Source: Candidatus Gottesmanbacteria bacterium (GTDB taxonomy: Bacteria; Patescibacteriota; Microgenomatia; UBA10105; UBA927). From it: a stretch of DNA of 64,000 bases. Shown here in pieces: positions 15,285 to 64,000 of this stretch. The position numbers were made by a program, and so were the translations under genes. Location: the NCBI GenBank assembly GCA_963790805.1, contig CAWBPL010000002.1, forward strand, positions 640,696 through 704,695, given 5' to 3'. Position 1 is the first letter of the stretch, and each line of letters starts with the position of its first letter. Under the pieces are notes generated by a model. That model saw only the letters and a list, made by a program, of their open reading frames with translations, was not told the DNA's origin and made no database searches.

Positions 15285-15351
15285 AGCGATAAATAGGGCA
15301 GAAGATCTTTTTTAGATGCACCGCTCACATTACACAATGTATGGACAAAAT

Positions 15352-16053: not shown

Positions 16054-16065
16054 GGGGTTTGGCTT

Positions 16066-16125
16066 ATTATACGGGTTACCAATGGTTTTTCAATAGCATG
16101 ACTTTTTGATCCGACAGGGTATAAT
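16066..16125. promoter_or_regulatory. Divergent promoter pair with two consensus TATAAT boxes and very short leaders
   Basis: On the plus strand, TATAAT at 16120-16125 lies 8 nt before ATG 16134. On the minus strand, TATAAT (plus-strand attata, 16066-16071) lies 12 nt before the ATG at 16053. It is preceded by TTGAAA with a 16-nt spacer. Confidence 0.45.
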
Positions 16126-16133
16126 AGGTCGAC

Positions 16134-17027: not shown

Positions 17028-17089
17028 TTATAGATATTCCTTGATGATTGTTTTACAATGGAGGCCGAAAAACCGTACCACACAAAATT

Positions 17090-18037: not shown

Positions 18038-18087
18038 TGATTCGAAGACCTCTACAATCGTGATGAGACATTTGGTAGAATTACCCT

Positions 18088-18783
18088 ATGCATTTTGAAG
18101 ACCCAAACGGACTTGCCACACTTGAGAGTATGAGTCAGGCTGTCTGGTATAACCGGTGGACATTTAAAAATTTTTCCCAATTTGTTACCGGTGACATCTT
18201 TGAGGTCGGTTGCGGGATAGGGAATTTTACGTCCATACTTACCGAGTATGGGCGAGTGTGGGCATGCGACATTAAACCATCGTATGTAAAACGGACGAAA
18301 CAACGAGTGGAAAAAAGGGGGGTAATTGGATTGGGGAATATAGAAACGGGCAAACTGTTCTTCGGATCAAAACAATTTAATACGATTGTATGCCTCAATG
18401 TTCTCGAACATATCCGAGATGATCAAGTTGCCATAAAACACATGTATCAACTTCTCAAGCCCGGAGGACATTTGATTGTTCTTGTACCGATTTATTCATA
18501 TCTTTACGGCAGCGTCGATATGGCAATAGGACATTTCCGCCGATACGTTCCATCAGATCTTATGCAAGTCGTTCAAAAAGCCGGATTTCACATCGTGCAC
18601 AAACGAATATTGAATTTTATTGGGGCATTTGCCTGGTTTGTTACGGGAAGTATTTTAAAGCGAAAAACGCTTTCGCGGAAGCAGCTTGCACTTTTTGACC
18701 GGTTTGCGCCGTTTATTTTGCCGCTCGAAGATATTGTCAGGCCACCCATAGGCACCTCTATTCTTCTTATCTTGCAAAAATGA
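18088..18783 (+). CDS. Class I SAM-dependent methyltransferase
   Basis: IFEVGCGIGNFT (motif I), CLNVLEHIRDD and LKPGGHLIVLVP. Confidence 0.75.
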   Translation: MHFEDPNGLATLESMSQAVWYNRWTFKNFSQFVTGDIFEVGCGIGNFTSILTEYGRVWACDIKPSYVKRTKQRVEKRGVIGLGNIETGKLFFGSKQFNTIVCLNVLEHIRDDQVAIKHMYQLLKPGGHLIVLVPIYSYLYGSVDMAIGHFRRYVPSDLMQVVQKAGFHIVHKRILNFIGAFAWFVTGSILKRKTLSRKQLALFDRFAPFILPLEDIVRPPIGTSILLILQK

Positions 18784-18862
18784 GGAGGGTATATTTATCG
18801 AGAAATATTTTTGTTACACTAGAAAATTAGTTGAATAGAATATCGACTAAGGAGTGTACTGC

Positions 18863-23525: not shown

Positions 23526-23594
23526 CAGGATTTCGGCTAAACAGCTGTTGTTTTTATCAATACCTCTGGTATGATGGCACTAAGGTTTGTGACT

Positions 23595-24530
23595 ATGGAT
23601 CCCTCATCAACAGTTCTTCTCACCGGTGCGACCGGACTCATCGGACAATTTTTACTGGAGTATTTAGCGAACTATTGCAGAGTTGTAACCCCTACCAGAC
23701 ATGAGATGGATATTGTGAATAAAGGTGAGACCCGCTCTGTGATTCATCAGTTGAAACCCAGCGTTATAATTCATGCTGCGGCATTTACCGATAATACGAA
23801 AGCAGAGAGCGAGCGGGGGAATATACAAGGGCTTTGTTGGCAAACAAACGTTGAAGGAACGCGGAATATTTCAGAGGTAGCAGAAAGCGTCGGCGCGTAT
23901 GTAATTTTTCTTTCGACGGGATCGGTATTTGCGGGTAGCATTGACAGTCCCGGTCCGTTTACGGAACGCGATTTGCCGTCAGCTCAGGAAGACCTTTCAT
24001 GGTACGGTTGGACGAAAGCGCAGGCGGAGAAGAAAGTGAACGGAGCAATCATCAGGCTTTCCCATCCGGTAAAAAAAGCAGATGTCTTTGACATTCCGCA
24101 GCAGGATACTGTACGTCAGGAACCCAGACGATTGGATTATATTCAAAATTTCGTCACGCTTTTTGATCATGATGCCCTGTATCCGCTTTTCACCGATCAG
24201 CATTTTTCGCTCACGTACCTTGATGATGTTGTTATAGCAATTAAACAATTATTGGAAATGAAACAAAAGGGTATATTCCATATTGTCAGTTACGATACCG
24301 TGACGCCGTTTGAACTTGCATCGTATGCCATATATAAAGCCAGACATGTACAACCGGCCCTCAAATCAATTTCCTTTCAATCATTCATAAATACTCAGCC
24401 GTTACCGAAACGATTCACCCAATATTGCGCCATAGACGGAAGTATTACTCGGGAGCAACTGCAGCTTCCTGCACGCACGTGGAAGGGAATTGTTGATTGT
24501 CTCTATCCTGAAATAGGAAAAGCAGATTAG
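23595..24530 (+). CDS. SDR-family nucleotide-sugar reductase/epimerase (RmlD-like)
   Basis: VLLTGATGLIGQ lies near the N-terminus when the start is ATG 23595. YGWTK (YxxxK) is present. A TATGAT box at 23569-23574 argues against the upstream ATG at 23571. Confidence 0.6.
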   Translation: MDPSSTVLLTGATGLIGQFLLEYLANYCRVVTPTRHEMDIVNKGETRSVIHQLKPSVIIHAAAFTDNTKAESERGNIQGLCWQTNVEGTRNISEVAESVGAYVIFLSTGSVFAGSIDSPGPFTERDLPSAQEDLSWYGWTKAQAEKKVNGAIIRLSHPVKKADVFDIPQQDTVRQEPRRLDYIQNFVTLFDHDALYPLFTDQHFSLTYLDDVVIAIKQLLEMKQKGIFHIVSYDTVTPFELASYAIYKARHVQPALKSISFQSFINTQPLPKRFTQYCAIDGSITREQLQLPARTWKGIVDCLYPEIGKAD

Positions 24531-24551
24531 TACTATACTATTTTTTATCGT

Positions 24552-26117
24552 ATGAAATTGAATGTAAAATTACTTCTTCGGACGGTAGAATTTCTTGCGC
24601 TGTTAGCGCTACTCGGATTTTTATTTTACTGGCGTTTTCAGGTAAGTGAGACGCGGTTTTTTGACGTTGATGAATTTACACATATGCATTGGGCGGCCGA
24701 TATGGCTCGCGGGCAAAAGCCGTACGTCGATTTCTTCACATTTTTTACACCGGGATTTTACTGGATGCTTATGCCGCTTTTCTGGTTATATTCCCGAAAC
24801 CCCATGATATTTTTGGCGGCACGGATGTCTATGTTATTTGTATTTGCAGGTACAGTTTGTCTTATCGGCATATTATTTGCGCTTCTTCGGTCACGCCGGT
24901 ATGCGCTCCTTCCTATGGTTCTTCTGGCGTTTCTCCCGATGCCCTATGATAAATTTCTAGAGATTCGACCGGATAACGTTGCTACTTTTTTAGGTCTTGC
25001 CGGAGTCGTGGTTCAAGTGTATGCGATGCTCAATCGCGGGAAAAAAGATATTCACCGATGGTGGCTGACTGCAGGCATATCCTATGCTTTATCACTTGTC
25101 GTATTAGTCAAAACACTGCCCTTTGTCGTTATGGGAGTAATTATCGCTTCAGTAGATGCGGGTTTTTGGGAATGGGTGAGCGATTGTTTCCGCCGAAAAC
25201 GCATCATTCATTATAACCTCGCCCTGCCATATAAAATGTTTATCCTCGGACTCGCTGGTGTGTTAGGGATATTCGTTCTCTGGCTTTTATCGCTTGGTCA
25301 TTTGTCGACCGTCTGGTATTCGCTTACCAAAATGGCATTCGAAGCAAATACCGTGGGTCAGCTGTATTCGATGGAACCGAATCTGTTTTTTTTCCCGAAT
25401 GTTTCCTTTTACGGCGATTGGGGAATTACCCGGCCGCTTATAATTAATCACACGATCTGGATAGTCGGTGTTATCGCAGGAACATACCGCTTAGTGACAC
25501 CATTTCTCACCGCGGATGGGAAACGTGAGAGGGTATTAAGCGAACTCTTGGTTTCTTCAATTTTTATACTGTCGGTTATCGGATACGTCATGTTTTTTCC
25601 TTTAAAGCACAGCCAATATCTTATTCCTATCGCGATATTTATTGTTTGGTTTGCTGCTGATTTTTGTATTGAAGTATTGCGCTTTTGCCGGAAGAATTTG
25701 TTTGGGGACATATCGGTAGTCATTCTTATTCTTCTTTTTTCCTATGTACTGGCGAAAGAGACCGTTCATGTGAATGCGTTAAAACTTATTACTTCCAACA
25801 CTGTTCAGTTGACTCAGACGAATCAACTTCTCACGATGATCGGTCCCAATGGAACCGTACTTGATTTGGATGGACGGCTGATTTTCTGGAAGGACCCGTA
25901 TTATATTTGTTGTTTGCCATTCGGCACATTTGAGCAGTATCTTTCACACAAACCTCCGTCGCTTTCAGATGCTTTGGAATCAGAGCGTATCCAGTATATT
26001 TTTCAGGGAGACAGCGGAAGGCTGGGACAACTGTGGAGTGATTTGCCCTACATAGAATCGCATTATACGCGCGTGCCCGGATGGGGTGACGCACTCTGGA
26101 AACGAAATGATTTGTAA
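24552..26117 (+). CDS. GT-C glycosyltransferase, PMT/GT39-like (family C, paralog of 6622-8133)
   Basis: 521 aa and multi-TM, with the loop motif RFFDVDEFTHMHWAADMARGQKPYVDFFTFFTPGFYW. Confidence 0.6.
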   Translation: MKLNVKLLLRTVEFLALLALLGFLFYWRFQVSETRFFDVDEFTHMHWAADMARGQKPYVDFFTFFTPGFYWMLMPLFWLYSRNPMIFLAARMSMLFVFAGTVCLIGILFALLRSRRYALLPMVLLAFLPMPYDKFLEIRPDNVATFLGLAGVVVQVYAMLNRGKKDIHRWWLTAGISYALSLVVLVKTLPFVVMGVIIASVDAGFWEWVSDCFRRKRIIHYNLALPYKMFILGLAGVLGIFVLWLLSLGHLSTVWYSLTKMAFEANTVGQLYSMEPNLFFFPNVSFYGDWGITRPLIINHTIWIVGVIAGTYRLVTPFLTADGKRERVLSELLVSSIFILSVIGYVMFFPLKHSQYLIPIAIFIVWFAADFCIEVLRFCRKNLFGDISVVILILLFSYVLAKETVHVNALKLITSNTVQLTQTNQLLTMIGPNGTVLDLDGRLIFWKDPYYICCLPFGTFEQYLSHKPPSLSDALESERIQYIFQGDSGRLGQLWSDLPYIESHYTRVPGWGDALWKRNDL

Positions 26118-26126
26118 CTTCATCAT

Positions 26127-26156
26127 TTGACAGACGTGAAATTTCGTGGTTATACT
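26127..26156 (+). promoter_or_regulatory. Sigma70-type promoter
   Basis: TTGACA (26127-26132), an 18-nt spacer, then TATACT (26151-26156). The predicted TSS is near 26163, at the start of the structured leader motif. Confidence 0.55.
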
Positions 26157-26162
26157 CACGTA

Positions 26163-26252
26163 ACTCAGGATTGCGACGTACAGGTTACTCAGTATATACC
26201 TATCTAATCAGTTTTTTCGCTTAAGAAAGCTGCAAACCTGAGTAAGATAGGT
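26163..26252 (+). ncRNA. Structured leader-like RNA motif, copy 1 (unclassified)
   Basis: An extended hairpin spans 26198-26252. The outer stem is ACCTATCT/AGATAGGT and the inner stem is TCAGTTTT/AAACCTGA. The apical stem GCTT/AAGC has an AAGA loop. The 5' ACTCAGG (26163-26169) is complementary to CCTGAGT (26237-26243). It is homologous to 30944-31031, with compensatory pair changes between the two. Confidence 0.5.
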
Positions 26253-26274
26253 GTAACTCCAATCAATCAATTGT

Positions 26275-26760
26275 ATGTCATCACTCGTTTATACTGTCGG
26301 AATATTTCTCGTCATATTTATTCTTCATAGTGTATTGCATCAAATTCTCAAACTTTTTGGTGTCGTAACATTTAAAAGCATGGTTGTATATGTGCTGGGA
26401 TTCCTTCCGCTTATCATTCTTTGGAAAGAGGGATTTCTTGTAATCCCGATGTCCTCATGTATTTTCTATATATTATTGGTTTTTGTTGTTGCGCCGTATT
26501 ATTTGGCGGTGACGCTCGAAGGGGAGACGCCGGCAGCGATGATTCTTAAAGCATTTTCCCTGAAAAAAATGTGGACAGTTAAAGAGCTCATCAGTTTATT
26601 TACGGTTCAGGGATTGTTGTGGGATCGCATAAACAAACTTGAGTCAACCGGTTTAATCCGCAAACGGAAAGAACACTTTATCGCTACATCAAATGGTCTT
26701 CGTGTCGTCGCATGGATAGAATGGTACAGAAAGTTATTTCATCGGTCCGTTTCGGGTTAA
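26275..26760 (+). CDS. Small membrane protein with C-terminal winged-helix-like domain
   Basis: 161 aa with three N-terminal TM helices. The soluble tail (TVKELISLFTVQGLLWDRINKLESTGLIRKRKEHFIATSNGLRVV) follows a helix-turn-helix plus wing pattern. Confidence 0.4.
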   Translation: MSSLVYTVGIFLVIFILHSVLHQILKLFGVVTFKSMVVYVLGFLPLIILWKEGFLVIPMSSCIFYILLVFVVAPYYLAVTLEGETPAAMILKAFSLKKMWTVKELISLFTVQGLLWDRINKLESTGLIRKRKEHFIATSNGLRVVAWIEWYRKLFHRSVSG

Positions 26761-26764
26761 GGAT

Positions 26765-27280
26765 ATGGATACTCTTATACTACTTTATACTTTGTTTAGT
26801 TTCTCGATATTTTTTGCAGCGCAGTTTATTGTATTTCGTTTTATCGATGAAGATAGGGCGCTCATGTGGCTTGTTAAGCTTTACTTTCTTATAGAGGGTG
26901 TTTCGCTTATTGTGGGTTTTGCGGTATTGCCTTCCGAGTCATATGTCATGATTGCAGTATGGCATTTTGTGATATTTACCTTATTGGTCGCCGCGTATAT
27001 GGCAGGCATTTTCAGTTTTACCGAGGCCTCCATTACGATACAGCTGTTAACCCAAATTGCCAAAGGCGGAAAAAAGGGTTTAACGAAGGCGCACATTCTT
27101 CAATCATATAATCCGAAAATGATCGTTCAGAGAAGATTATCTCGATTTATTGCAGGGGGAGATATCGTGCGTCAGGGGTCTTCGTATCGCTGGCGGAGCG
27201 TCTTTTCGCCGTTTATTCTGCGCGAACATGCCTTCTTTGTATTCCAGATTTTTTTCCCCCGCATGACGTCACTGGGATAG
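26765..27280 (+). CDS. Small membrane protein with C-terminal winged-helix-like domain
   Basis: 171 aa with 3-4 TM helices. The tail is ITIQLLTQIAKGGKKGLTKAHILQSY...RLSRFIAGGDIVRQGSSYRW. It starts 5 nt after the previous gene. Confidence 0.4.
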   Translation: MDTLILLYTLFSFSIFFAAQFIVFRFIDEDRALMWLVKLYFLIEGVSLIVGFAVLPSESYVMIAVWHFVIFTLLVAAYMAGIFSFTEASITIQLLTQIAKGGKKGLTKAHILQSYNPKMIVQRRLSRFIAGGDIVRQGSSYRWRSVFSPFILREHAFFVFQIFFPRMTSLG

Positions 27281-28639
27281 CGTGTAGAAATGCCGAAACC
27301 ACGTCCGCAGGTGTTTTCCTATGATCACCCACCAATAGAGTGAGAAGAGCGTTAAAAACGGTTGAACAGTGCTATAAAACCGTGCATAGTCATAATATCC
27401 GGTTCCGGTAAGAACATAGAGAACGACAGTACCGTATGAAAAAGTGCCAAGAAGGGTAATTCCCGCTTCTTTCCGTGATATTTTTTTGAATAAAAGCCGT
27501 ATCCACGCCACAAGAATAAATGGAATAGAAGTTATATAGATATATTGTGTTAATCGAAATACGATTGAGAGAGCATAGAATATTGATCGCACGATGTTTG
27601 TTGGGGCAAATGCGTAATGCTCATCAGTGACAAGAAATGACGCTGGAATATCGGCGAGCCCATGAAGTGCGTAAGCGAATGGATATGCGTTGATTATTGC
27701 CATATCGAATTTTCGCAGTATGATAATATTTTGAGTTGAGCTGTACGTATCAACGTTATATGTATTAAGAAAAATCCAGACATCGGGTTTGTTCGTTGAG
27801 ACTGTGTATGCTTTCACCTGATCGTAGAGCGGCTGGAAGTTTTTTGCGGGTGTCAGAGGAAGTCGGAATTGCATAATGCGCGCGAGCATATTGATGTCGC
27901 CGCCATTTTGTATGCCGAAGTACCCCCAGTTCATTTCGTTGATTTTTGCATAGCCAAGAATAAAAAGAATAAAGAGACCGCCGGCGACGATGCATCGAAG
28001 AAGTGCTGGAAGTTTTTTGTGATAATAGGCGATAAACGGAAATATGATGAATGGATAAATTATCGTTGCCGGTCGGAAGAGAACGCCGATGATTGAAAAA
28101 AAAGTAATGAAAAGTACGGTAAGCCACGTTGGGGAGGTGAGTGCATATATCATAAGAAACCCCATGATAAAGGTAATTGGTATTGAAAAACTTTCCGATA
28201 ACACTGATCGTTCCCATATAATGGCATTTATACTTATGGCCTGAAAAATACTCATGCCGAGTATGACCAAGCGCGATGTAAAGAGTTTACGAAGCATGAA
28301 ATAGAAAATAATGATTCCGATAATATTTACTACCGTCTGTATAAATCCGATATACTGTTCACCGATAAAATATTCCGGCGATACCATGCGTACGCCGAAA
28401 TGTCCGGTTGCCGCGACAATAGCGTTAAGAAAAATCGGATACAACGGCGGGCGGAAAGGATTAATCCATGATCGCAGCGAAGGTGATCGGAGCATATTTT
28501 GTCCAATTTCGTAATACCCGTATGTATCAGGGAAAATATTGAGATACGGATGGATGACCAGATATCCAATCCGAATAAGTATTGCAACGCCAAGAAGAAT
28601 AGCCAGATCTATGAAAGTTTTTTTATTTTTCAGCAGCAT
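27269..28639 (-). CDS. GT-C glycosyltransferase, GT39/ArnT-like (family B, member 2)
   Basis: 456 aa. See the family B motif above. The N-terminus DLAILLGVAILIRIGYLVIHPY parallels the other members. Confidence 0.6.
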   Translation of the reverse strand: MLLKNKKTFIDLAILLGVAILIRIGYLVIHPYLNIFPDTYGYYEIGQNMLRSPSLRSWINPFRPPLYPIFLNAIVAATGHFGVRMVSPEYFIGEQYIGFIQTVVNIIGIIIFYFMLRKLFTSRLVILGMSIFQAISINAIIWERSVLSESFSIPITFIMGFLMIYALTSPTWLTVLFITFFSIIGVLFRPATIIYPFIIFPFIAYYHKKLPALLRCIVAGGLFILFILGYAKINEMNWGYFGIQNGGDINMLARIMQFRLPLTPAKNFQPLYDQVKAYTVSTNKPDVWIFLNTYNVDTYSSTQNIIILRKFDMAIINAYPFAYALHGLADIPASFLVTDEHYAFAPTNIVRSIFYALSIVFRLTQYIYITSIPFILVAWIRLLFKKISRKEAGITLLGTFSYGTVVLYVLTGTGYYDYARFYSTVQPFLTLFSLYWWVIIGKHLRTWFRHFYTLSQ

Positions 28640-28767
28640 ACCGTCGGTAAGAGGGAATATGACAATAGTATAAATTATAGAGGTTTGACTTTCTACCTTA
28701 AGATATTCATGGTGTTCAAGTACAGCAGTCTTGAGTTTTATACATGTTCGCCTATAATGCGAGGGCT

Positions 28768-29553
28768 ATGAAAACAGTGATTCTTTGCGGAGGAATAGGA
28801 TACCGGTTAAAAGAAGAAACGGAATTTAAGCCGAAACCCATGGTCCTCGTCGGCAATAAACCGATACTCTGGCATATCATGAAAATTTATGCTCACTTCG
28901 GATTTAAAGAATTTATTATCGCTCTCGGGTATAAAGGCGAGTACATAAAAGATTATTTTTTGAATCAGAAATATTTTCTCCACGATTTTACACTCCACAC
29001 CAAAAGCGGACATACAACGATTCATCGGGTATCTGATGATCATCTGACGATGGATGATTTTACCATTACGTTTGTGGATACTGGGCAGGAGACATTACCG
29101 GGTGAAAGGATTCTTCGCGTCCGTGATTTTATACCCAAAAATGATGATGAATTTATGGTTACCTATGGTGATGGGTTGGGAGATGTTGATATAAAAAAGC
29201 TCATTGCTTTTCATCATAAACATAAAACAATAGGCACGCTCACAGGTGTCCATCCGCGCAGTAAATTCGGATTAGTGCGCCTGAATACTGAGAATAAAGT
29301 AACGGGATTTTTAGAAAAACCGTCGCTTAAGGAATGGGTGAATGGGGGATTTATGATATTTAACAAGAAATTTTTTAAATACCTAAAACCCAATGAATAT
29401 GAACATGTTGCTATCAATCGGCTGGTTCAAGAAGATGAGCTTTCCATCTATACACATGAGGGATTTTGGCATTCGATGGATACTTATTCAGATGTCGAGA
29501 GTCTCAATAAACTTTGGGTCACGAACCCGCTTTGGAAGATCTGGCACGATTAA
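28768..29553 (+). CDS. rfbF: Glucose-1-phosphate cytidylyltransferase
   Basis: MKTVILCGGIGYRLKEETEFKPKPMVLVGNKPILWHIMKIYAHFGFKEFIIALGYKGEYIKDYF is the characteristic RfbF N-terminus. A TATAAT box lies at 28753-28758. An alternative ATG exists at 28744. Confidence 0.85.
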   Translation: MKTVILCGGIGYRLKEETEFKPKPMVLVGNKPILWHIMKIYAHFGFKEFIIALGYKGEYIKDYFLNQKYFLHDFTLHTKSGHTTIHRVSDDHLTMDDFTITFVDTGQETLPGERILRVRDFIPKNDDEFMVTYGDGLGDVDIKKLIAFHHKHKTIGTLTGVHPRSKFGLVRLNTENKVTGFLEKPSLKEWVNGGFMIFNKKFFKYLKPNEYEHVAINRLVQEDELSIYTHEGFWHSMDTYSDVESLNKLWVTNPLWKIWHD

Positions 29554-30901
29554 CGTGTGGATGGATAATCTGTGCGATCCAGAAGAACGAAAAAAGATAA
29601 AAAACCGTTTGTCCTGCGCCTACCAACCGTCCCCATTCACCGTATCCATACACAAGCGTGACTCCAATTTGATATATCGAAAGCAAGCCGAGAAACATAA
29701 GCGCCGCAACGCGAAAGTTTTTCCGTGAAAAAAATGAAGCGAACGTAATGGGAAGGAATACAAAAATAGCAAACGTGACGTATTGCATGTATTTGTAGAC
29801 TGTAAACAGTGAAGTAAATACCGCGCGAAGCGGAGGCGATTTGATTGATCCGATAGGGAGAAGATCGTCAGCAGGCGTATCCGTGAGTGCATGAGGCAGG
29901 TCGGTGAGTACAGAGCCGAAGTATTGAGGGAATGTCCCGATCATAACCTGTCGGGTGAATTTTTGAAGGTCATTCATGCGCCCGGAGTTATAAAACATCG
30001 AAGGGTCGTAAAAACTCAAGTACCAATAGGGCATTTGGGTGTTGCCGCCGCGGGCTCGGTAGTCATTGACAGTTGTATAAAAAAACGGAACATCGCGACC
30101 GGATTCCACTGGGATATTAAAGCGCAAGATTCTTCCCATAACATTAATATCAGCAATTTGTGTGACACCGGCATAATTGTGAATTGTCACATTTTTGTAG
30201 ATATACAAACCCGGTATGAGAAAGTAGACGATGAGTATAATTACCGTAAACCATGTAACCCAGCGTTTTTTGTGGTAGAGGGCAATAATGGGAAGCAAAA
30301 GAATTGGTAGCAGTACATATGATGGCCGTACAAAAAATCCGATGATAAAGAGGACGAGTACGGCGAGAAATTTTTTCCATGACGGATTTTTCAGCGTAAT
30401 AATGTAAACGAACACAAGAAGCATAAGCCAAAAGGTGGTTATTGATTCAGTAAGGATCGTCCGTTCTTGCCAAAACAGCATAATATCCATGCCGATAAAC
30501 AGGCAACAACAATATGCCCATACGTTTCGTATCTTGAGTTGTCGCAACGTTATATAGAGAAGTGGTATTTCAAGAACTCCAAGAATTGTTTGGGTATAGA
30601 CGACAATATTTAATCCCTGATAAAACGATCTGCTGTAAAGTGCTGCGTTGAAATGCCCCGATAAAAACATAATAAGAGCGAGGAAAATTGGGTATCCGGG
30701 AGTCCGGTAATTATTAAAAAAATATGCAAGAAAGTTGTCGGTAAACAGATGGTTTGCGTAGTAATAATAATTCCCGCTGTCATCAGTGAATATCGGATAC
30801 TGCGTTGTACTCATATAGAGAATCCGGATTCCCAAAACGATAAGAACAATGACTGGAATTACGATCCATGGAGTTGAAAATCGGGAGATAATTTTTTTCA
30901 T
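29519..30901 (-). CDS. GT-C glycosyltransferase, GT39/ArnT-like (family B, member 3)
   Basis: 460 aa with the family B motif. Its 3' end overlaps rfbF by 35 nt (convergent). Confidence 0.6.
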   Translation of the reverse strand: MKKIISRFSTPWIVIPVIVLIVLGIRILYMSTTQYPIFTDDSGNYYYYANHLFTDNFLAYFFNNYRTPGYPIFLALIMFLSGHFNAALYSRSFYQGLNIVVYTQTILGVLEIPLLYITLRQLKIRNVWAYCCCLFIGMDIMLFWQERTILTESITTFWLMLLVFVYIITLKNPSWKKFLAVLVLFIIGFFVRPSYVLLPILLLPIIALYHKKRWVTWFTVIILIVYFLIPGLYIYKNVTIHNYAGVTQIADINVMGRILRFNIPVESGRDVPFFYTTVNDYRARGGNTQMPYWYLSFYDPSMFYNSGRMNDLQKFTRQVMIGTFPQYFGSVLTDLPHALTDTPADDLLPIGSIKSPPLRAVFTSLFTVYKYMQYVTFAIFVFLPITFASFFSRKNFRVAALMFLGLLSIYQIGVTLVYGYGEWGRLVGAGQTVFYLFSFFWIAQIIHPHVNRARSSKAGS

Positions 30902-30943
30902 GACGCGTGTGAAATGATTTAATTTCTATTATATACCGCAAAA

Positions 30944-31031
30944 ACTCAGGTTTGTAATTAAGTTTTTGAGTATAGACCCATCTAATCAGATTTTTCGTCC
31001 CAAGAGACTGTAAATCTGAGTAAGATGGGTC
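30944..31031 (+). ncRNA. Structured leader-like RNA motif, copy 2 (unclassified)
   Basis: The hairpin spans 30975-31031. The outer stem is GACCCATCT/AGATGGGTC and the inner stem is TCAGATTT/AAATCTGA. The apical stem GTC/GAC sits in an 18-nt cap, as in copy 1. The 5' ACTCAGG lies at 30944-30950. Confidence 0.5.
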
Positions 31032-46500: not shown

Positions 46501-54231
<7,731 letters not shown>

Positions 54232-55340
54232 TAAAAGCCTGATAATCAGATAAATTAGATAACATTAGACTGTCCATATATATACTTAACCTTATATATA
54301 ATAAGCGTGTCAATAGGTTTGTTGATATATTTAAGTACTAATCAGATATGGTACTCAAAAGCATGGATTGTGGAATGTACTATCAATAATAGGGATATTT
54401 CACGAATTACCGCATAGATATAAAGAAGGTATTAATAATATTATTAATATTTTTAATCAATAGATATTGATTAAAAAAAATGAATATACTGTAATTATTT
54501 CCCGCGACCAGAGTTTTACAGTTTATTGAGACAAACGCGTGAAAAGGCGATAGAGTAACCTAAATTATCTTTATGACCTGTAATGATTAGTTTAATCACC
54601 TTATAGTAAAATCAGCTTTGGAACACTCATTATTGATACTCTCAGATATGTAATTAGTCAATATATATTGATATATGGACTCTTAGCATTCTTAACAGTT
54701 TTGTGCTATTAGTAATTTTGCTTATTGTATTGCCCTAAAACGATCATCACATTAACACACTTTTCAGTTTATATTGTTATAAGTCTTTGTTCGGTTTTTT
54801 GTAATAATACTCAAAAAATGTTGAAGCTAAATAATCGTAAGAAATAGGGGTTGGCAATTACATTCTATGAGTGCCATTATTGTTTTAGCTTATATTTTCG
54901 TGCCAAAAATGATTTGTTATACCCTAGAAGAAGTGAGGCGAGGGTAAAATATAAGACATAGAAATTTATAAGGAATGAGGCAAGGCTATTCGCAAACAGC
55001 ACTCCTAAAGTGCTTATTGGTTTAGATTGATCTAACGTTGTTTTATTGTGTTACATTGAATGAAAATTTATAAAACTGATCATACATGAAGTTATAAGCA
55101 CTCTTTCAAGTTTGGATTGTTATAGTAATATATCGGTATTTATTCGTTTATAATTATAGGTTTATAAAAACTCATATTAACCTCTTTGTTGTATTTGAAT
55201 ATCCCGTAGTTAGTAAAACGGTTTGCGTGAGATATGCGTGTGAAAATATTGGTTTAGCTACCGTATTTTTAGGTCACTGGAATGACCTACAAGGGGCAAT
55301 AGAAAGTAAAGATGTAAAATTGGTACGTATATAATATATA
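54232..55340. other. 1.1-kb AT-rich non-coding region between the giant gene and leuS
   Basis: No ORF of 60 aa or more occurs in any frame. The region is visibly AT-rich. It contains a perfect 18-nt palindrome ATTAATAATATTATTAAT (54431-54448). It also contains the inverted repeat AATCAATA-ga-TATTGATT (54455-54472). Confidence 0.7.
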
Positions 55341-57892
55341 ATGAAGCGCATGAGACAGTCTTCGTATCCACATAACGAGATAGAAAGAATGGCAGAACGC
55401 TTGGGAAAAGGCGAGAGTTGATATTGTTGATATAACGAAAGCCAAAAAACCTTTTTATAACCTCATGATGTTTCCATATCCGTCAGCTGAAGGGCTTCAC
55501 GTTGGAAACATGTATGCATTTACCGGATCTGATATTTATGGTCGATTTAAACGGATGCAGGGCTACGATGTCTTTGAACCAATCGGGCTTGGATGGATTC
55601 GGAATTCATAGCGAAAATTATGCTTTAAAAATCGGGCGGCACCCTATGGATCACGCAACGATAACGGAAAAAAATTATTATAATCAGTTGCATAAGATCG
55701 GTGCGATGTTTGATTGGACCCGGACAGTGGAGACATATGATACAGATTATTATAGATGGACACAGTGGCTGTTTGTTCAGATGTTTAAGCATGGTTTAGC
55801 TTATCGCAGCAAGGCGGAAGTTAACTTTTGTCCGAGCTGTAAGACGGTATTGGCAGATGAACAGGTGATTGATGGAAAGTGTGAACGATGCGGTAATATT
55901 GTAGAGAAAAGATTGTTGGAACAATGGTTTTTTAAGATTACCGCATATGCGGGGAAACTGCTGGAAAACTCATTTAGCCTCGATTGGTCGGAAAAAGTAA
56001 AAGTGGCACAAAAAAATTGGATCGGGAAAAAAGAGGGGATAGAAATTACTTACCCGGTAGTTGATGAGAAAAATAATCAAATAGGAAACGTAACATGCTT
56101 CACAACTCGGCCTGATACGAACTTCGGTGCCACATTTGTTGTCATTGCGCCCGAACATCCTTTTGTCAGTCAAGCACTTAAAGTGACAAAAAATGAACAG
56201 CGCGTCAAAATAACCAAATACGTTTCCGAAGCAAAAATGAAATCAGAAGACGATCGGATACAGGAAGGAAGAAAGAAAACTGGGGTCGATACAACGCTCT
56301 ATTGTGTTAATCAGCTCAACGGAACGAAGATGCCGTTGTATATTTCTGATTTTGTGCTCATGAATTTTGGCACCGGAGCGGTTGTCGGCGTGCCCGGACA
56401 TGACATGCGCGATTTTGAATTTGCGACAATGTTTCATATTCCCGTCATTCGAGTCGTTGTCGGTTCGGATGGTGATAAAAGCCCAATTACAAAAAAAGAG
56501 CAAGTGCAGGAAGAAGAAGGCGTCATGATCAATTCTGAATTTTTAGACGGCAAAGATATTCATAAAGCGACCATTGAGATGATGGATTATTTGGAGAAAA
56601 AGGGTTGGGGGAAGCGCGTTACGACGTACCATTTGCGCGATTGGCTTATTAGCCGCCAGCGCTATTGGGGACCGCCGATACCGATGATTTATTGTTTGGA
56701 ATGTGAAAAAAGAGGTAAGGGTGAACGAAGTGAAATGCAGGGTTGGTACAGCGTGCCGGATAAAGATCTTCCCGTCGTATTGCCGAAAATTGAAGATTAC
56801 AGGCCGGGAAATGACGGTATAGCGCCCTTAGCAAAACATAAAGATTTTTATAATGTGGCATGCCCTGCGTGCGGTAGGTAGCGCGACGGGAAACTGATGT
56901 TTCCGATACATTTCTGGATAGCTCATGGTATTTTCTTCGCTATCCATCTGTTGGCAATGCTAAGGTCTCCCGCCAGCGCGGGATCCCCGCATTGCCTTTT
57001 GATCCAGCGATTACGAAAAAATGGCTGCCTGTCCATATGTATACCGGAGGCGCGGAGCATAGCGTATTGCACCTTATGTACAGCCGTTTTGTGACCATGG
57101 CGCTCAAAGACTGGGGATATATCAATTTTGAGGAACCGTTCAGCACGTTTTTACGCACATGGATTGGTGATTAAAGATGGTGCAAAAATGAGCAAAAGCA
57201 AGGGGAATATCGTTAATCCGGATGAATATATCGCTCTCTATGGCGCCGATGCGCTTCGCATGTATCTTATGTTCATGGGGCCGTTTGATCAGGGCGGTGA
57301 TTTTCGTGATGCCGCAATGGAAGGGATGAGCCGCTGGGTCGGCCGGGTATGGCGTCTGGGAGAGGCTGTCCGGACAAAGAAAGCGAGCTCATCGGTTAAA
57401 ATTCATGGAGCATTGCAAAAACTGATTAAAAAAGTGACGGATGATCTGGAAAAACGCCGCTACAATACCGCAATTGCTTCGATGATGGAATTTACCAACC
57501 TTGTTGCGGATGAATCTGACGCGATAAGTACCGACGACTATACAACGCTTCTGCTTCTTATGGCGCCCTTTGCGCCGTATATCACTGAGGAGCTTTGGCA
57601 AACAATGCATAATAATAATTCTGCTAAAGAATTTCAGGCGAACGATTCTATTCATCACCACGCATGGCCTGCGTACGATCTTACCGGTATAAAAGAAGAA
57701 GAAACGGCATTTGTGGTGCAGGTAAACGGGAAGCTTCGGGATACCATGACGGTTTCTGTTGAAAAAAGTAAGAATCAAGGAGAAATGGAAGCATTGGCGA
57801 AGGCGTCGGAACGGATTAAACGATATATTGCCGATAAAAAAATTATAAAAGTCATTTTTATATCCGGCAAGCTTCTCAATTTTGTTGTTTAA
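55341..57892 (+). pseudogene. leuS: Leucyl-tRNA synthetase gene interrupted by four frame changes (pseudogene or locally error-rich assembly)
   Basis: LeuRS sequence is recoverable only by joining frames. Positions 55341-55388 read MKRMRQSSYPHNEIE. Positions 55390-55590 read WQNAWEKA...MFPYPSAEGLHVGNMYAFTG...EPIGL. Positions 55592-56878 read DGFGIHSENY...CPACG. Positions 56878-57150 read VARRETDVSDTFLDSSWYFLRY...EEPFSTF. Positions 57152-57892 read YAHGLVIKDGAKMSKSKGN to the stop. Confidence 0.8.
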
Positions 57893-57981
57893 CCCTGAGC
57901 CTGTCGAAGGTTTATCTTGAGCTTGTTGAAAGGGTTTTCATGTAAGACGGTTTACAGACTTTTGTTCCCCGTTGTGGTGAA

Positions 57982-58713
57982 ATGCCTTCAATGGACCTCC
58001 TGCCGGTCGAAGAAAACCCGTCAGATTTGCTCGAAATCTGGAAACAATACAAGATTCCTGTGGTTTTGGGTGTGGGAAGCGTTGTGTTGGCGGTGATTTC
58101 GATATTTCTTCTTGTCAAATCAAGCCAAAGTGCAAATCCCATTCAATTTTCTCATACGAATTCGGCGCAAAATACGGATACAGCAGGCTCGTTTGAATCA
58201 AGCACTCTAGGGAGTCAGTCTGCTAATTTGGGGGGTATTACGGTGGACGTGGAGGGAGCGGTGGTAAAACCAGGTCTTGTGACACTACTATCGGGTAACA
58301 GAGTGGAGGATGCCATCGTGGCAGCTGGAGGATTGAGACGTGATGCAGACGAAATATTTGTTGCGCAAAATATCAACCGCGCAATGAAACTCGTTGACGG
58401 CATGAAACTGTATATTCCGAGTGTCGGAGAAGACCAGACGTCGTACAATCCAAAGCTAAATGGTTCTATAGATGAGACGTCGCACAATTTTAGCGCCGTT
58501 GTTGCGAAGCCGGGCGCGTCTAGCCAAAATGGTGCCTTCGTTTCTATAAATATGGCTTCAAAAGATGATTTAGATTCGCTTCCGGGCGTTGGCCCAGTCA
58601 CGGCGCAAAAAATTATCGACAATCGGCCGTATGCAAGTCTTGACGATCTGGTGACGAAAAAGGCAATCGGGCCGTCATTGTATGCAAAACTCAAAAACAT
58701 GCTGTCACTGTAA
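57982..58713 (+). CDS. comEA: Competence protein ComEA (membrane-anchored helix-hairpin-helix DNA receptor)
   Basis: It has an N-terminal TM helix (IPVVLGVGSVVLAVISIFLLV) and a SLBB-like middle region (ITVDVEGAVVKPGLVTL). The C-terminal tandem HhH is INMASKDDLDSLPGVGPVTAQKIIDNRPYASLDDL. Confidence 0.85.
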   Translation: MPSMDLLPVEENPSDLLEIWKQYKIPVVLGVGSVVLAVISIFLLVKSSQSANPIQFSHTNSAQNTDTAGSFESSTLGSQSANLGGITVDVEGAVVKPGLVTLLSGNRVEDAIVAAGGLRRDADEIFVAQNINRAMKLVDGMKLYIPSVGEDQTSYNPKLNGSIDETSHNFSAVVAKPGASSQNGAFVSINMASKDDLDSLPGVGPVTAQKIIDNRPYASLDDLVTKKAIGPSLYAKLKNMLSL

Positions 58714-58754
58714 TGACCTAGGACGGCTTTTCTTTTTGGGTCCGTATCGATTCT

Positions 58755-59831
58755 ATGACGTTGGATTTGTTTACAGGGCTTATTAACGGTCTGTTGCCGG
58801 AACCTCATGCCGGTTTATTAAACGGAATTTTATTTGGTGTCAAGACGACATTGAATCCGGATCTTCAACAATCTCTTTTAAAATCCGGTACATCATATAT
58901 TTTAGCGCACTCTGGTATGAATATTTCCATCCTCGTTGGTATATCAAATCTCCTACTTCTTCGCTTTGTTCGTAGACCTATAGCAAATTTGGTTTCTGTG
59001 ATAATCATTATAGGGTATGTTTGGTTAGTGGGAATAACACCGAGCGTACTTCGTGCGGCGCTTATGGCCGCGATATCTTTGGCAGCCGTATCATTGGGTC
59101 GTCAAAACTGGACTCTATTAAGTTGGGTATTGGCGGTCGGTATTATGCTTATTATTAATCCCCTGTGGATCGGCGATGTTTCATTTCAGATTTCAGTCAT
59201 GGCCACCTTAGGGATAATTGTGTTTGGAGGCAAAAAATCTCACGCGGGGAGGCTCACAATTTTGAGCACCGTCACGCGCAGGAACTCCACGTCAGCAGGC
59301 TCTTTACCAATGCGCGCGCAGGTCACAAACGAAAATTTAGACGCATCTTCAGTTTCTCTCGTGAACTCAGCTCCAACTCTTCATACGTTGGATTCTCACT
59401 CGCAAAGTGAAGCTGCGCAAAATTTTGTTAGCTCCCCGCGCGGGAGGGCTTTTTCGCGTCCACATCATCCACCAATCTTAAGCCTTCTTGACGGATACGC
59501 AACAAATTGCGCGCCGACCAAAGCGATTGCAAAATTTATATGGTCTTTGATCGCAGATGACCTTCGGGTTACCCTCGCCGCTCAAGCGTTTACGATTCCC
59601 ATCATCATCTTTCAATTCCATCAGATATCGCTTGTCTCTCCCCTTTCGAATATCCTTATTGGCTGGCTGATTGCGCCGGTTATGGCTTTGGGCTTTGCGC
59701 TCGTCATTGGTGGTCTTTTGTGGGCGCCGATCGGTATGATATTCGCTTGGATTGTTTTTGTCCCGTTGTCATACATCATTCTTGTTATTGATTTGACGAG
59801 CAAACTGCCGTTTGCAAGTTTGTCGTGGTGA
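58755..59831 (+). CDS. comEC: ComEC/Rec2 competence channel, membrane (competence) domain part; carries an in-frame repeat-element insertion
   Basis: LPEPHAGLLNGILFGVKTTLNPDLQQSLLKSGTSYILAHSGMNISIL is the ComEC signature region. The ORF ends at TGA 59829-59831, which is in frame with the next ORF. Confidence 0.75.
   Translation: MTLDLFTGLINGLLPEPHAGLLNGILFGVKTTLNPDLQQSLLKSGTSYILAHSGMNISILVGISNLLLLRFVRRPIANLVSVIIIIGYVWLVGITPSVLRAALMAAISLAAVSLGRQNWTLLSWVLAVGIMLIINPLWIGDVSFQISVMATLGIIVFGGKKSHAGRLTILSTVTRRNSTSAGSLPMRAQVTNENLDASSVSLVNSAPTLHTLDSHSQSEAAQNFVSSPRGRAFSRPHHPPILSLLDGYATNCAPTKAIAKFIWSLIADDLRVTLAAQAFTIPIIIFQFHQISLVSPLSNILIGWLIAPVMALGFALVIGGLLWAPIGMIFAWIVFVPLSYIILVIDLTSKLPFASLSW
59240..59535 (-). 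repeat. Palindromic repeat element, copy C (composite, about 290 nt), inserted in-frame inside comEC
   Basis: The reverse complement of 59262-59287 (gttcctgcgcgtgacggtgctcaaaat) is nearly identical to 170-196. Positions 59480-59494 (aagccttcttgacgg) are an exact reverse-complement match to 39844-39858. An internal inverted duplicate pairs 59242-59270 with 59412-59443. Confidence 0.65.
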
Positions 59832-59843
59832 GTTTATGAGCGT

Positions 59844-60740
59844 ATGAAATTGCGAGTCGGATACCTTATCTGCGGAATTACTACAGGGTTGATTATCCTT
59901 ATTGGATTTATATGGACTCAGCCCGACGGGTTGCTCCATATTGTTTTTTGCAATGTCGGCCAAGGCGATAGCGCGTATGTCCGTTTTCCGGACGGGCGCG
60001 ATATGCTTGTTGATGGTGGTCCGGATAACGGGTTAGCGCTTACCTGCCTTGGTCGCCATATGCCATTTTGGGATAGGCATATCAATATTGTCGTCATGTC
60101 GCATCCGCAGGCTGACCATATGGGAGGGCTCGTTGAGGTTTTTAAGCGGTTTTCCGTTGATTATTTTGTGCGAAGTGATGCCGACAATAATACTGATATT
60201 TACAAAAGCCTTCTTACCGCCGTGAATGAACGGCATGTACCTGTCCGGTACGTAACTGCCGGAGATCAAATTGCAATTGGATCCACTTCCCTTCTGATGA
60301 TTTGGCCCTCTTTTGAACAACTTGCGCGTGCTAAACCTACAGCTGAGACAGTGGCTCATGTGGGTGTTGCAGTCGGCAACCTGAACGACGACTGCCTGGT
60401 TTTTGTGTTGCGGTATGGAAATTTCGATGCAGTTTTTCCGGGAGATGCAGACCGTGATGTTGAGGCTAATTACACCGGACTACAGGTCTTTCACAATCCT
60501 GTAGAAATTCTTAAAGTGCCGCATCACGGAAGTAAAACCGGTATGAATTTAGCTTTTATTGACTGGCTAAAACCACAATTAGCAGTAATCTCGGTCGGGA
60601 AGAATACATACGGTCAGCCTGCAAAAGAGGCTGTTGATATGCTCCAAAACGTTGGTTCACGCGTGTTGCGGACTGATCAAAAAGGCGACATAGAAGTAAC
60701 AAGCGACGGAATACGTTGGTCAGTAAAAACGGAAAAATAG
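59844..60740 (+). CDS. comEC: ComEC C-terminal metallo-beta-lactamase domain part
   Basis: It has a TM helix followed by FCNVGQGDSAYVRFPDGRDMLVDGG, SHPQADHMGG (HxHxDH-type) and LKVPHHGSKTG. Confidence 0.8.
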   Translation: MKLRVGYLICGITTGLIILIGFIWTQPDGLLHIVFCNVGQGDSAYVRFPDGRDMLVDGGPDNGLALTCLGRHMPFWDRHINIVVMSHPQADHMGGLVEVFKRFSVDYFVRSDADNNTDIYKSLLTAVNERHVPVRYVTAGDQIAIGSTSLLMIWPSFEQLARAKPTAETVAHVGVAVGNLNDDCLVFVLRYGNFDAVFPGDADRDVEANYTGLQVFHNPVEILKVPHHGSKTGMNLAFIDWLKPQLAVISVGKNTYGQPAKEAVDMLQNVGSRVLRTDQKGDIEVTSDGIRWSVKTEK

Positions 60741-60798
60741 TAAAATCATATGCACACATTTTCTTGTACCGATCGTTTCGTTGGTCTACACTACAAGT

Positions 60799-62133
60799 AT
60801 GCCGAGTGATACTGCCCTTACTTCACCCGATCTTGTTATAGTGTTTGCCCAAGCACTTACCGGCTTGGGGCACTTGCGCGTCAGTCATGCGCTCTATCAC
60901 GGGTTGCCGCCGGGGGTCCACGCTCTCCTTCTCAACTCTCAGGATGAAAGTATTAACTCGATATACAAAGTTATGAGCGTCAATCCTGCTCTTCGAAACG
61001 TTATGGAATTTGCACAACAGGGATTGCCGGAAGATATATCTACCATCCTTTTGCGATGGTATTTTCGAAGAAATACGAGACTCATCGCCGAACAACTGCA
61101 GACCATTTTGGAGCAGCACGGTGCGAAACCAAAAACTCTTTTAGTTATTGCGACACACACCTTTCTGGGTCATGAGCTTGCGGCGATCAAAGAAAAGTTT
61201 AGCCGAACCAACAAAGTGCATGTGGTGCTGGTTGTCGTGGTCACTGACGACAGTCCGCAACACATATGGTCTGTGGGCGGAGCCGATTTGGTATTTGTAC
61301 CTAGCGAGTATACCAAGGGTCAGCTTGAATCATATCATCGTTCGCATCGCCGTATGGCTCCGACGACATATGTTGTTGCACCGTATATGGTAAGTCCGGC
61401 ATTGGGTATGGAGTGTTCTGAAATCCAGTACAGTCGTCGTATTCAGGAATTGGATCCCGGACGCCTCGCGAGTATTCATATGGCGATTCCTATATCAGGC
61501 GCTTCCGTTCAGTTGTTGTATCTTGAAAAACTCATACGGGAGTTGAAGCGGTTGTCTGATCGCTTTGTGTATCAGGTCATTTCGCAGCATTCTCCTTCAA
61601 CGAATGCGTTTTTACGCATGATGATCGGGAAACGGAATGTCCGGCTTCATGTTTCGTATTCGTATCGTGAAGTTGTCGATTTGTATGAACAGGTCTACGA
61701 GCGTGAAGTTATCGCGCTTGAAGTGACCAAGCCATCCGAGCAATCGTTTAAAGCGCTTCTCAAGCCCCGGCAGCGCGGCGGCGCAATTCTTCTGTTTTCC
61801 CAACCGGTGGGTCGTCAGGAGCGGGATAATCTTCGCTTTCTTATCCGGCACAATCTCCTACCGACCACTCAGGAACAAAAAACGCTATGGCGATTGGCTA
61901 TATCCAACAAGCCTCCGAGCGAAAGTATTCTCGTTCATGCTCGGTGCTGGCGGGGGCTTCGACTTCCGGTTCATTCCAAAGCATCAGCACAATTTATCTG
62001 GTGGGCCCATGAACACAAGCTCTTTTTGGCTATGGCGCATTTTGCAGGGTTTCCCCAGAGTTCAGAGCTCGGCAGTTATGGTGTAACGACGTTCTGGAAA
62101 ACCGTAAATGAATATTTAGAGCATAATAAATAG
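60799..62133 (+). CDS. Hypothetical protein; weak resemblance to the MGDG-synthase/UgtP-type GT-B N-terminal domain
   Basis: The track ORF starts at TTG 60781 and the first ATG is at 60799. IVFAQALTGLGHLRVSHALYHGL and VVVVTDDSPQHIWSVGGADLVFVPSEY loosely follow the G-x-G-H...TD...W...D-x-y-x-V pattern. No confident motif was found. Confidence 0.3.
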   Translation: MPSDTALTSPDLVIVFAQALTGLGHLRVSHALYHGLPPGVHALLLNSQDESINSIYKVMSVNPALRNVMEFAQQGLPEDISTILLRWYFRRNTRLIAEQLQTILEQHGAKPKTLLVIATHTFLGHELAAIKEKFSRTNKVHVVLVVVVTDDSPQHIWSVGGADLVFVPSEYTKGQLESYHRSHRRMAPTTYVVAPYMVSPALGMECSEIQYSRRIQELDPGRLASIHMAIPISGASVQLLYLEKLIRELKRLSDRFVYQVISQHSPSTNAFLRMMIGKRNVRLHVSYSYREVVDLYEQVYEREVIALEVTKPSEQSFKALLKPRQRGGAILLFSQPVGRQERDNLRFLIRHNLLPTTQEQKTLWRLAISNKPPSESILVHARCWRGLRLPVHSKASAQFIWWAHEHKLFLAMAHFAGFPQSSELGSYGVTTFWKTVNEYLEHNK

Positions 62134-62149
62134 CTTTTATTTTGGGGTA

Positions 62150-62178
62150 TTGACAAGTATGTTTTAGAGTAGTAAACT
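62150..62178 (+). promoter_or_regulatory. Sigma70-type promoter of the argS leader
   Basis: TTGACA (62150-62155), a 17-nt spacer, then TAAACT (62173-62178). Confidence 0.55.
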
Positions 62179-62204
62179 AATTTTTCTTAACATTTAAATA
62201 TATG

Positions 62205-62497
62205 TGGCGTTGAAGGAGAAAGTCCGATCAGATCGGACCTCGAGCTCCTTTACCCTGATACTGTTCCTAGTGAAGGGCGAGCCGGTTTCCGAAAAAATCT
62301 TTACCCAGAGCGAAAGCTAGGGTACAGGAAAGTAGGAAACATAAATGAGCTAATTGCAACTTCTGTCAAGGCATTTACAGGAGTTTTGTTTGTCCCCGTG
62401 ACAAGCGATTAGAAATGAAGGTGGCACCACGGTTTTAAACCGTCCTTTTGAGCCTCCTACCCTCTTTAGGGTACGAGGCTTAAGCGGACGGTTTTTT
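62205..62497 (+). promoter_or_regulatory. T-box riboswitch leader (tRNA-sensing transcription attenuator) upstream of argS
   Basis: The T-box sequence is AAGGUGGCACCACGG (62418-62432). It forms a canonical antiterminator: A1 AAGG/CCUU, a 7-nt bulge UGGCACC, A2 ACGG/CCGU and the loop UUUUAAA. A competing terminator follows. The 5' UGAAGGAGAAAGU is a K-turn/S-turn-like element. Confidence 0.8.
62437..62497 (+). terminator. Intrinsic terminator of the T-box leader
   Basis: ACCGUCC (62439-62445) pairs with GGACGGU (62486-62492). Inside it are the helices GAGCCUC/GAGGCUU and UACCCU-cuuu-AGGGUA. A U6 run follows (62492-62497). Confidence 0.75.
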
Positions 62498-62677
62498 GGT
62501 GGGAATTTTGCGATCCGCCAGCCGGCGGAGAGCTTAATTTCCGATCAATCCGCCGAAGCCTTAGCGAAGGTGGATTGTGGGAAAAAGTATTTTCTCCTGT
62601 AGTATGTAAACTACCGGAAGAGGGTATTGGTACTTGATGTTTTATGATCTACTTTATTGAGTCAAAATAGTGGTATT

Positions 62678-64000
62678 ATGGAGAAAACTATGAAAAATGA
62701 AATTCAGGTATTTATTGCGGGAATCGTCCAATCATTGGGGATTAATCCCGCAAGTATTGTCATAGAAGCGCCGGAAAATGCAGAACACGGTGACTATACG
62801 ACGAATGTTGCGATGACGCTCGCGGGGCATCTAAAGGCTCCGCCGATGAAAATAGCTGAAAAAATTGTTGATGCCATCAAAGAATATCAAAAAAAATCAC
62901 CTCTTGAGTGGTTGGATAGGGTAGAGATAGCCCCTCCGGGCTTCATAAACCTGTTTCTCTCCGAAGCTAGTCTCAGCACTGAGCTTGCCGAAGTGCTAAA
63001 AGAAAAAGAGCGCTACGGCCGGACGCGTTATACAGGTATTACACAGTTCGGCGTGCCAAAAAACGGCCAAAAAACGGCTCGTGCCACATCACTAAAAAGT
63101 ACACAAGAACAGAATGGGAAAATACCTGAAAAATCACCCCAAAATCACAGCATAGTTCAGCCTTCAACATTCACGCATGCGGAAAAAACAGCAGAGAAGG
63201 GCAAAATAGCCTTATTCGGGAATAAAAAAACGATCATGGTCGAGTTTGCCCATCCCAATACTCATAAAGCATTTCACATCGGACATCTTCGCAATATCAC
63301 GACAGGCGAAAGCGTCGTCCGATTACTTGAATCGCAGGGATATTGCGTAATTAGAGCGAACTATCAGGGTGATGTGGGCATGCATATTGCTAAGGCATTG
63401 TATGCCCTGTTAAACGTTTCCCCATTTAAAGAGGAAGTATCGAAGGTTACTGGTATAAAAAACCGCGTAGAGTTTTTAGGAAAGGCGTACGCCGCCGGCA
63501 GCAAGGCGTTTGAAGAATCGGAAGATGTAAAGAAAATTATTGGTGATATCAATATAAAAATTTATGCAAAAGATCCTTCCGTCTATCCTGTATATCGTGA
63601 AACACGGCAATGGAGCCTTGATTACTTCGAAACCATTTATAAACTCGTAGGAAGTCACTTTGACCGGTATTATTTTGAAAGTGAAACGTACGAAACGGGA
63701 AAAACGTATGTCTTGGAAGGGTTAAAGAAGGGGATTTTTGAAAAAAGTGATGGAGCAATTATATTCCCCGGTGAAAAATACGGACTTCATAATCGTGTTT
63801 TTGTTAACTCAGAGGGCAACGCGACGTATGAAGGGAAGGATATGGGTCTTGCGCGTCTGCAATTTGATGAGTATAACCCAGAGGTCATTGTTCATTGTGT
63901 GGGACCCGAACAGGCAGGCTACTTTCAGGTGATGTTCAAAGCGCTAGAATATCTTTTTCCCGATACAAAAGGCAGGGAAAAGCATCTCATTTACGGCTGG
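62678..64000 (+). CDS. argS: Arginyl-tRNA synthetase (5' part; continues beyond the window end)
   Basis: The frame is open from ATG 62678 (second ATG at 62690) to the window edge, 441 codons. It is absent from the ORF track because no stop codon lies in the window. The N-terminal Add-1-like region carries GDYTTNVAM. The HIGH motif is AHPNTHKAFHIGHLRN, followed by ANYQGDVGMHIAK. Confidence 0.9.
   Translation, partial: MEKTMKNEIQVFIAGIVQSLGINPASIVIEAPENAEHGDYTTNVAMTLAGHLKAPPMKIAEKIVDAIKEYQKKSPLEWLDRVEIAPPGFINLFLSEASLSTELAEVLKEKERYGRTRYTGITQFGVPKNGQKTARATSLKSTQEQNGKIPEKSPQNHSIVQPSTFTHAEKTAEKGKIALFGNKKTIMVEFAHPNTHKAFHIGHLRNITTGESVVRLLESQGYCVIRANYQGDVGMHIAKALYALLNVSPFKEEVSKVTGIKNRVEFLGKAYAAGSKAFEESEDVKKIIGDINIKIYAKDPSVYPVYRETRQWSLDYFETIYKLVGSHFDRYYFESETYETGKTYVLEGLKKGIFEKSDGAIIFPGEKYGLHNRVFVNSEGNATYEGKDMGLARLQFDEYNPEVIVHCVGPEQAGYFQVMFKALEYLFPDTKGREKHLIYGW

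Follow-up and report, generated by a model that had tools for sequence, protein, structure and literature searches.

Frameshifts in leuS of a Candidatus Gottesmanbacteria contig: probable consensus errors over a strain-polymorphic patch

The gene for the bacterial-type leucyl-tRNA synthetase (LeuRS), leuS, occupies positions 55341–57892 (+ strand) of the stretch studied here, and its full-length product of 850 aa can be obtained only by changing the reading frame four times. The question is whether such a gene is decayed, is decoded in an unusual way, or is only recorded incorrectly. The stretch, called the window below, comprises 64 kb of a 1.22-Mb (1,222,826 bp) contig of a Gottesmanbacteria (CPR) genome from NCBI/ENA. 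A sequence-only reading of the window had considered two origins for the frame changes, a recently decayed pseudogene of an essential gene and a locally low-coverage or strain-mixed consensus.

Reading frames of leuS in the deposited window

The pieces of the gene were delimited from the map of open reading frames and a three-frame translation of positions 55300–57900. Frame 0 gives MKRMRQSSYPHNEIE, from the ATG at 55341; frame 1 continues with KEWQNAWEKA ... EPIGL and frame 2 with DGFGIHSENY ... CPACG; frame 1 is then used again, for VARRETDVSDTFLDSSWY (VARRETDV) ... EEPFST, and frame 2 again for the last piece, FYAHGLVIKDGAKMSKSKGN (FYAHGLV) ... NFVV*, with the stop at 57892. The frame changes are thus +1, +1, −1 and +1, at about 55385, 55588, 56876 and 57148. 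This translation confirms that LeuRS is readable only across four frame changes, and it bears out the observation that the four sites have no slippery motif in common and shift in both directions.

The joined window protein is 850 aa long and has no in-frame stop. In an alignment with 15 homologues, the LeuRS of Candidatus Gottesmanbacteria and other Patescibacteria, it is colinear and gap-free at all four junctions, with 69–76% identity. The best 120 LeuRS homologues listed are all full length (821–971 aa), none of them sits on a contig of 1,222,826 bp, and the closest among the 80 GTDB representative loci returned is 72% identical. The annotation of the MAG records leuS as fragments of 48, 411 and 241 aa. 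Scored alone against NCBIfam TIGR00396 (leuS_bact), the window fragments give 432.4 and 196.6 bits, under the equivalog cut-off of 548.4 bits. Within the 64-kb window we found no second leuS, no tRNA genes and no Rfam families.

Comparison with a second assembly

The Logan contigs of run ERR11594402, an independent k-mer assembly that carries the same proteins as the window, were used for comparison over 61,568 bases (61.6 kb of the window). Between these assemblies, 36 positions are different in all, and 35 of them lie within 3,112 bp (54211–57322), a clustering with a chance probability of the order of 1e-46. Three Logan loci from two contigs of the same run serve as the baseline: one is 100% identical to window positions 31008–52591 (L082), one shows a single difference over 14551–30988 (L083), and the third shows the same single difference over 2133–24272 (L085). 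The Logan contigs break inside the repeats of a giant gene, at 52592–52872.

An 18-kb Logan contig (L081), which also carries the downstream comEC, covers window positions 52873–64000. Its flanks, 52873–54210 and 57323–64000, are 100% identical to the window, and its 27 mismatches and 7 indel events (8 gapped positions) all fall in 54211–57322. Here leuS is uninterrupted (L081:2468–5020) and encodes a protein of 850 aa (P0129) that has all LeuRS domains, is colinear with the joined window protein and scores 846.7 bits against TIGR00396. The editing domain CP1 (PF13603) and the anticodon-binding domain (PF08264) were matched in this intact allele and in all homologues.

Each of the four frame changes in leuS is an indel relative to this allele, referred to below as allele A. 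At the first site (55383–55390, + strand) the window reads GAAAGAATGG against GAGAATGCATGG (EIENAWQ) in the intact allele, or, in the tabulated form, GAGATAGAAAGAATGGCAG against GAGATAGAGAATGCATGGCAG (EIENAWQ). None of the 15 homologues has a gap here, and the difference is complex, with a net shortfall of two bases in the window, not the one-base slip in an A-rich tract that had been proposed. At the second site (55584–55592, + strand) the window has ATCGGGCTTGGAT against ATAGGG-TTGGAT, that is, an extra C, which adjoins a synonymous C/A difference. At the third site (56876–56883, + strand), where the window reads GGT-AGGTAGCG against GGTCAGGTAGCT, the window lacks one base, and a synonymous difference lies 7 bases away. 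The fourth change (57145–57152, + strand; window AGCACGTTTTTAC against AGC-CGTTTTTAC) had been placed in the T5 run, but this run is common to both alleles, and the extra base is an A at 57145, as in AGC[A]CGTTTTT.

Three further indels lie upstream of leuS. An extra T at 54211 is a fifth frame-breaking indel and cuts the first 22 codons from the neighbouring 2576-aa gene on the − strand. At 54487 the window reads GAATA-TACTG against GAATACTACTG, and at 55325, 16 bases before the start of leuS, it reads TTGGTACGTAT against TTGGT-CGTAT; both are single-base indels in the spacer. Because of these three indels, we regard the defect as a property of the 3-kb patch, not of leuS alone. The sequence-only reading had counted four indels in 1.8 kb and none in the other 60 kb: the clustering stands, the "none" does not, given 54211, 54487 and 55325. 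Its argument that such a density is unlike uniform sequencing error holds as well, with 35 of the 36 differences in about 5% of the sequence. By direct reading, five of the seven indel events relative to allele A are single bases outside any homopolymer, which would be untypical of replication slippage.

The neighbouring giant gene (46501–54231, − strand; 2576 aa in the window) is transcribed divergently from leuS and has a Phage_int_SAM_1-like domain at its N-terminus, followed by collagen triple-helix repeats. It looks intact in the window solely by virtue of an in-frame TTG restart. With its true start, which is cut off by the extra T, the gene spans 46501–54277 (− strand).

The spacer between the two genes (54278–55340) is a non-coding stretch of 1,063 bp with a GC content of 29%, against 44% for the window, and is unusually long for a compact CPR genome. 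It contains no convincing open reading frame and no T-box, leader or other Rfam family (one chance-level match). The promoter and terminator scan of the spacer gave nothing meaningful, promoter-like hexamers occurring at the rate of shuffled sequence. This 1.1-kb spacer, expected to be the fastest-evolving part of the region, has zero substitutions and indels alone, so the indels reach beyond the truly divergent tract.

The only difference between the assemblies outside the patch is in a run of G at 22223–22227, with five G in the window and four in Logan (at 22227). It falls in the open reading frame at 21876–23525 (− strand), which with G5 encodes an intact 549-aa PMT_2-like glycosyltransferase adjoining the next gene and with G4 only 451 aa. 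At this position it looks as if the window is right and Logan wrong, or as if the length of the poly-G run truly varies. Between 35159 and 36939, the N-terminal (289 aa) and C-terminal (304 aa) parts of transketolase are encoded by neighbouring genes with a 4-base overlap. Both assemblies agree exactly on this arrangement, which has the appearance of a natural split and not of a frameshift.

In another Logan run (ERR12035932), gene calling divides a Gottesmanbacteria-type leuS on a 2.1-kb contig (L084, positions 1144–2142) into a fragment of 162 aa and, after it, a second product of 129 aa; leuS genes called in pieces are thus met repeatedly in raw assemblies of such samples. A 162-aa cluster-mate (P0133) was rejected, being the leuS of another organism from another run.

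Two leuS alleles and the origin of the frame changes

All substitutions in the patch lie inside leuS, the first at 55388 and the last at 57322. The divergent tract (55385–57322, + strand) holds 27 of them (1.4%), mostly synonymous. At the codon level, 19 differences from allele A are synonymous and 9 non-synonymous, and two junction codons are ambiguous. The dN/dS ratio on the joined frame, a check named in the sequence-only reading, was 0.12 by the Nei–Gojobori method (21 synonymous and 10 non-synonymous changes; dS 0.041, dN 0.005), i.e., purifying selection, and the synonymous excess over neutrality is significant (p = 2.5e-8). Because sequencing error cannot yield a synonymous bias, the window follows a genuine second allele of leuS (allele B) that evolved under purifying selection, and not noise. 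The sampled population thus contains at least two haplotypes over the first 2 kb of leuS, A as assembled by Logan and B as in the window.

The replacements between A and B are conservative (R/K, D/E, K/R, I/V, Y/F) and fall at positions that are variable among the homologues. Of the 364 alignment columns without variation among the 15 homologues, 363 are unchanged in the joined protein, and the one exception, V27, is common to allele A. No stop has arisen by substitution. Selection and the kept residues together leave the indels as the sole damage to leuS.

The divergence between the alleles has a sharp end at 57322 and leaves the upstream spacer untouched, and the background is identical over about 58 kb. 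Two leuS alleles in an otherwise identical background suggest, as far as the sequences can tell, a short homologous-recombination tract within a conserved gene. A 33-base exact-DNA pattern specific to B had no match in the JGI metagenome contigs scanned, and in a protein search a 187-aa segment spanning the third and fourth sites found a best match of just 79% identity. The 90% cluster of the intact LeuRS consists of the Logan protein and the MAG's own fragments, and nothing else.

Judging from the second assembly, we consider it very probable that the frameshifts are errors of the deposited consensus over this strain-polymorphic patch. The indels are confined to the only patch with two detectable haplotypes, and two genes and the spacer are affected, in line with the strain-mixed or low-coverage consensus put forward in the sequence-only reading. 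The frame breaks are all among the 35 differences absent from the Logan assembly. Indels in the N-terminus of the neighbouring gene and in the spacer are what a poor local consensus predicts and what the decay of one gene does not. The intact single open reading frame that was to speak against a pseudogene has in substance been found, in a second assembly in place of a read pile-up.

Over about 3 kb (54.2–57.3 kb), the contig would have been built from minority or mixed reads, and single-base indels would have survived polishing. Two routes to this outcome are conceivable. In the first, reads of A and B would have been mixed in polishing and multi-base differences between the alleles only half applied; TTG and CTT, both Leu, would then give CTTG, and CGT-TTT with ACG-TTT would give ACG-TTTT. 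The second, third and fourth sites could accordingly each be derived from allele A by adding just one member of a compensating pair of indels (TTG to CTT, CAG to AAG, and CGT-TTT to ACG-TTT). In the second, the assembler would have taken the path of the minority allele B for about 3 kb, and the reads there would have been too few to yield a clean consensus. The half-applied model is consistent with the sequences of these three sites, and a low-depth consensus of allele B is equally so.

Three points tell against an origin in the consensus. The Logan assembly is itself not error-free, as the shorter frame produced by its G4 at 22227 shows. If both assemblies used the same reads, the differing choice of allele lacks an explanation, and with no intact copy of B found, the window could in principle report B faithfully.

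According to published work, predicted proteins are truncated by indel errors in metagenome assemblies from long reads, and strains that are similar enough are merged into a single consensus (PMC13087279, PMC9262707). The patch resembles the IDEEL-type consensus errors of long-read or strain-collapsed MAGs in that single-base indels split a conserved gene and are gone in another assembly, here too coinciding with strain polymorphism. It differs from them in that the errors are packed into a single patch of 3.1 kb, with the rest of the 61.6 kb identical, and are not dispersed genome-wide.

A real and very recent pseudogene, in which a strain carrying allele B has four indels in leuS and a cut neighbour and relies on a second leuS elsewhere in the 1.22-Mb genome or on a host, is in our estimate very unlikely. 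The deposited consensus does show the indels, and no intact allele B was recovered by the contig scan or the protein search. Moreover, relative to a hypothetical in-frame B, each of the four could be a change in the length of a short run, namely A5 to A3, G to GG, AA to A and T4 to T5. Length change of short runs is the commonest natural frameshift. Against this, four to five frameshifts with no other decay, at a dN/dS of 0.12 and with the invariant residues kept, are an implausible ratio, and there is no sign of relaxed selection. Within the same 3 kb, the spacer and the neighbouring gene carry indels as well, and 58 kb elsewhere is free of them. LeuRS is an essential enzyme whose gene is normally present once, particularly in a CPR genome of 1.2 Mb, and no second gene appeared in the window or, among the best 120 homologues, on a contig of the same length as the window's. 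The disruptions are not reproduced in the independent assembly, where an intact allele from the same population lies between identical flanks (L081). The proposal of a decayed pseudogene of an essential gene is thus left unsupported. Genuine pseudogenes of reduced symbiont genomes are similar in showing multiple frameshifts in a recognisable gene beside intact neighbours; here, in contrast, selection is not relaxed, no invariant residue is lost, no stop has arisen by substitution and an intact allele exists.

Plain platform error in a single haplotype, i.e., homopolymers miscalled at random or systematically and no mixing of strains, appears extremely improbable. The indels do lie in or beside short runs, and there is the further homopolymer discrepancy at 22227. 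Yet the 27 substitutions with their strong synonymous excess indicate two haplotypes, and uniform error cannot place 35 of 36 differences in 5% of the sequence.

Programmed recoding, with the ribosome changing frame four times to make the full-length and fully conserved protein that does assemble across the shifts, has practically no likelihood, given shifts in both directions with no common slippery motif, 15 aligned orthologues that are gap-free at the junctions, 120 listed homologues that are full length, and a co-existing allele that is one uninterrupted 850-aa frame. The LeuRS of Aquifex aeolicus is naturally split into two subunits encoded by two genes with their own starts; leuS of the window is like it in having more than one reading frame or piece and unlike it in that its five pieces are out of frame and have no starts, while the orthologues are single open reading frames.

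The HVGN motif and the LeuRS of this organism

The HIGH motif of the window leuS (55492–55503) reads HVGN, its last His being replaced by Asn. The sequence-only reading had read the motif correctly and listed it beside the possible decay of the gene; as a hint of decay it fails, since HVGN is fixed throughout the clade of these LeuRS and is therefore uninformative on this point. It is found in all 15 aligned homologues and in 20 of 20 close Gottesmanbacteria-type loci, while 59 more distant LeuRS, from other CPR, Chloroflexi and Clostridia, have HxGH (79 of the 80 fetched genome loci had a readable motif). The KMSKS motif is present.

The closest solved structure is the LeuRS of Thermus thermophilus (PDB 1H3N), with which the intact allele is colinear over its full length (E = 1.9e-196). 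Opposite HMGH of that enzyme stands HVGN, and opposite GWDAFGLPAE stands GLDGFGIHSE; the latter replacement is fixed in the Gottesmanbacteria-type clade, as HVGN is. Being conserved, HVGN is presumably functional, and together with GLDGFGIHSE it possibly represents an undescribed variant of the catalytic core. A literature search returned no paper that mentions HVGN together with LeuRS.

It is highly unlikely that one strain truly has a freshly inactivated leuS together with a giant surface-type gene truncated at its N-terminus, and persists alongside another whose allele is intact. Were this so, the strain would need a second LeuRS, or a CPR cell would be doing without its own by an unknown route. 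Almost certainly, the broken leuS does not exist as a biological feature. In a CPR genome of one contig, an essential gene found broken could pass for host dependence or decay, and caution is needed in this respect. It is advisable to regard the deposited leuS as intact despite its annotation in fragments of 48, 411 and 241 aa, and the start of the neighbouring 2576-aa gene needs correction. The biological content that remains is minor: two coexisting leuS alleles (dS about 0.04) and the occurrence of HVGN throughout the LeuRS clade. Taken together, the sequences lead us to conclude that the organism would have a normal, single and functional bacterial-type LeuRS with the HVGN motif typical of its clade.
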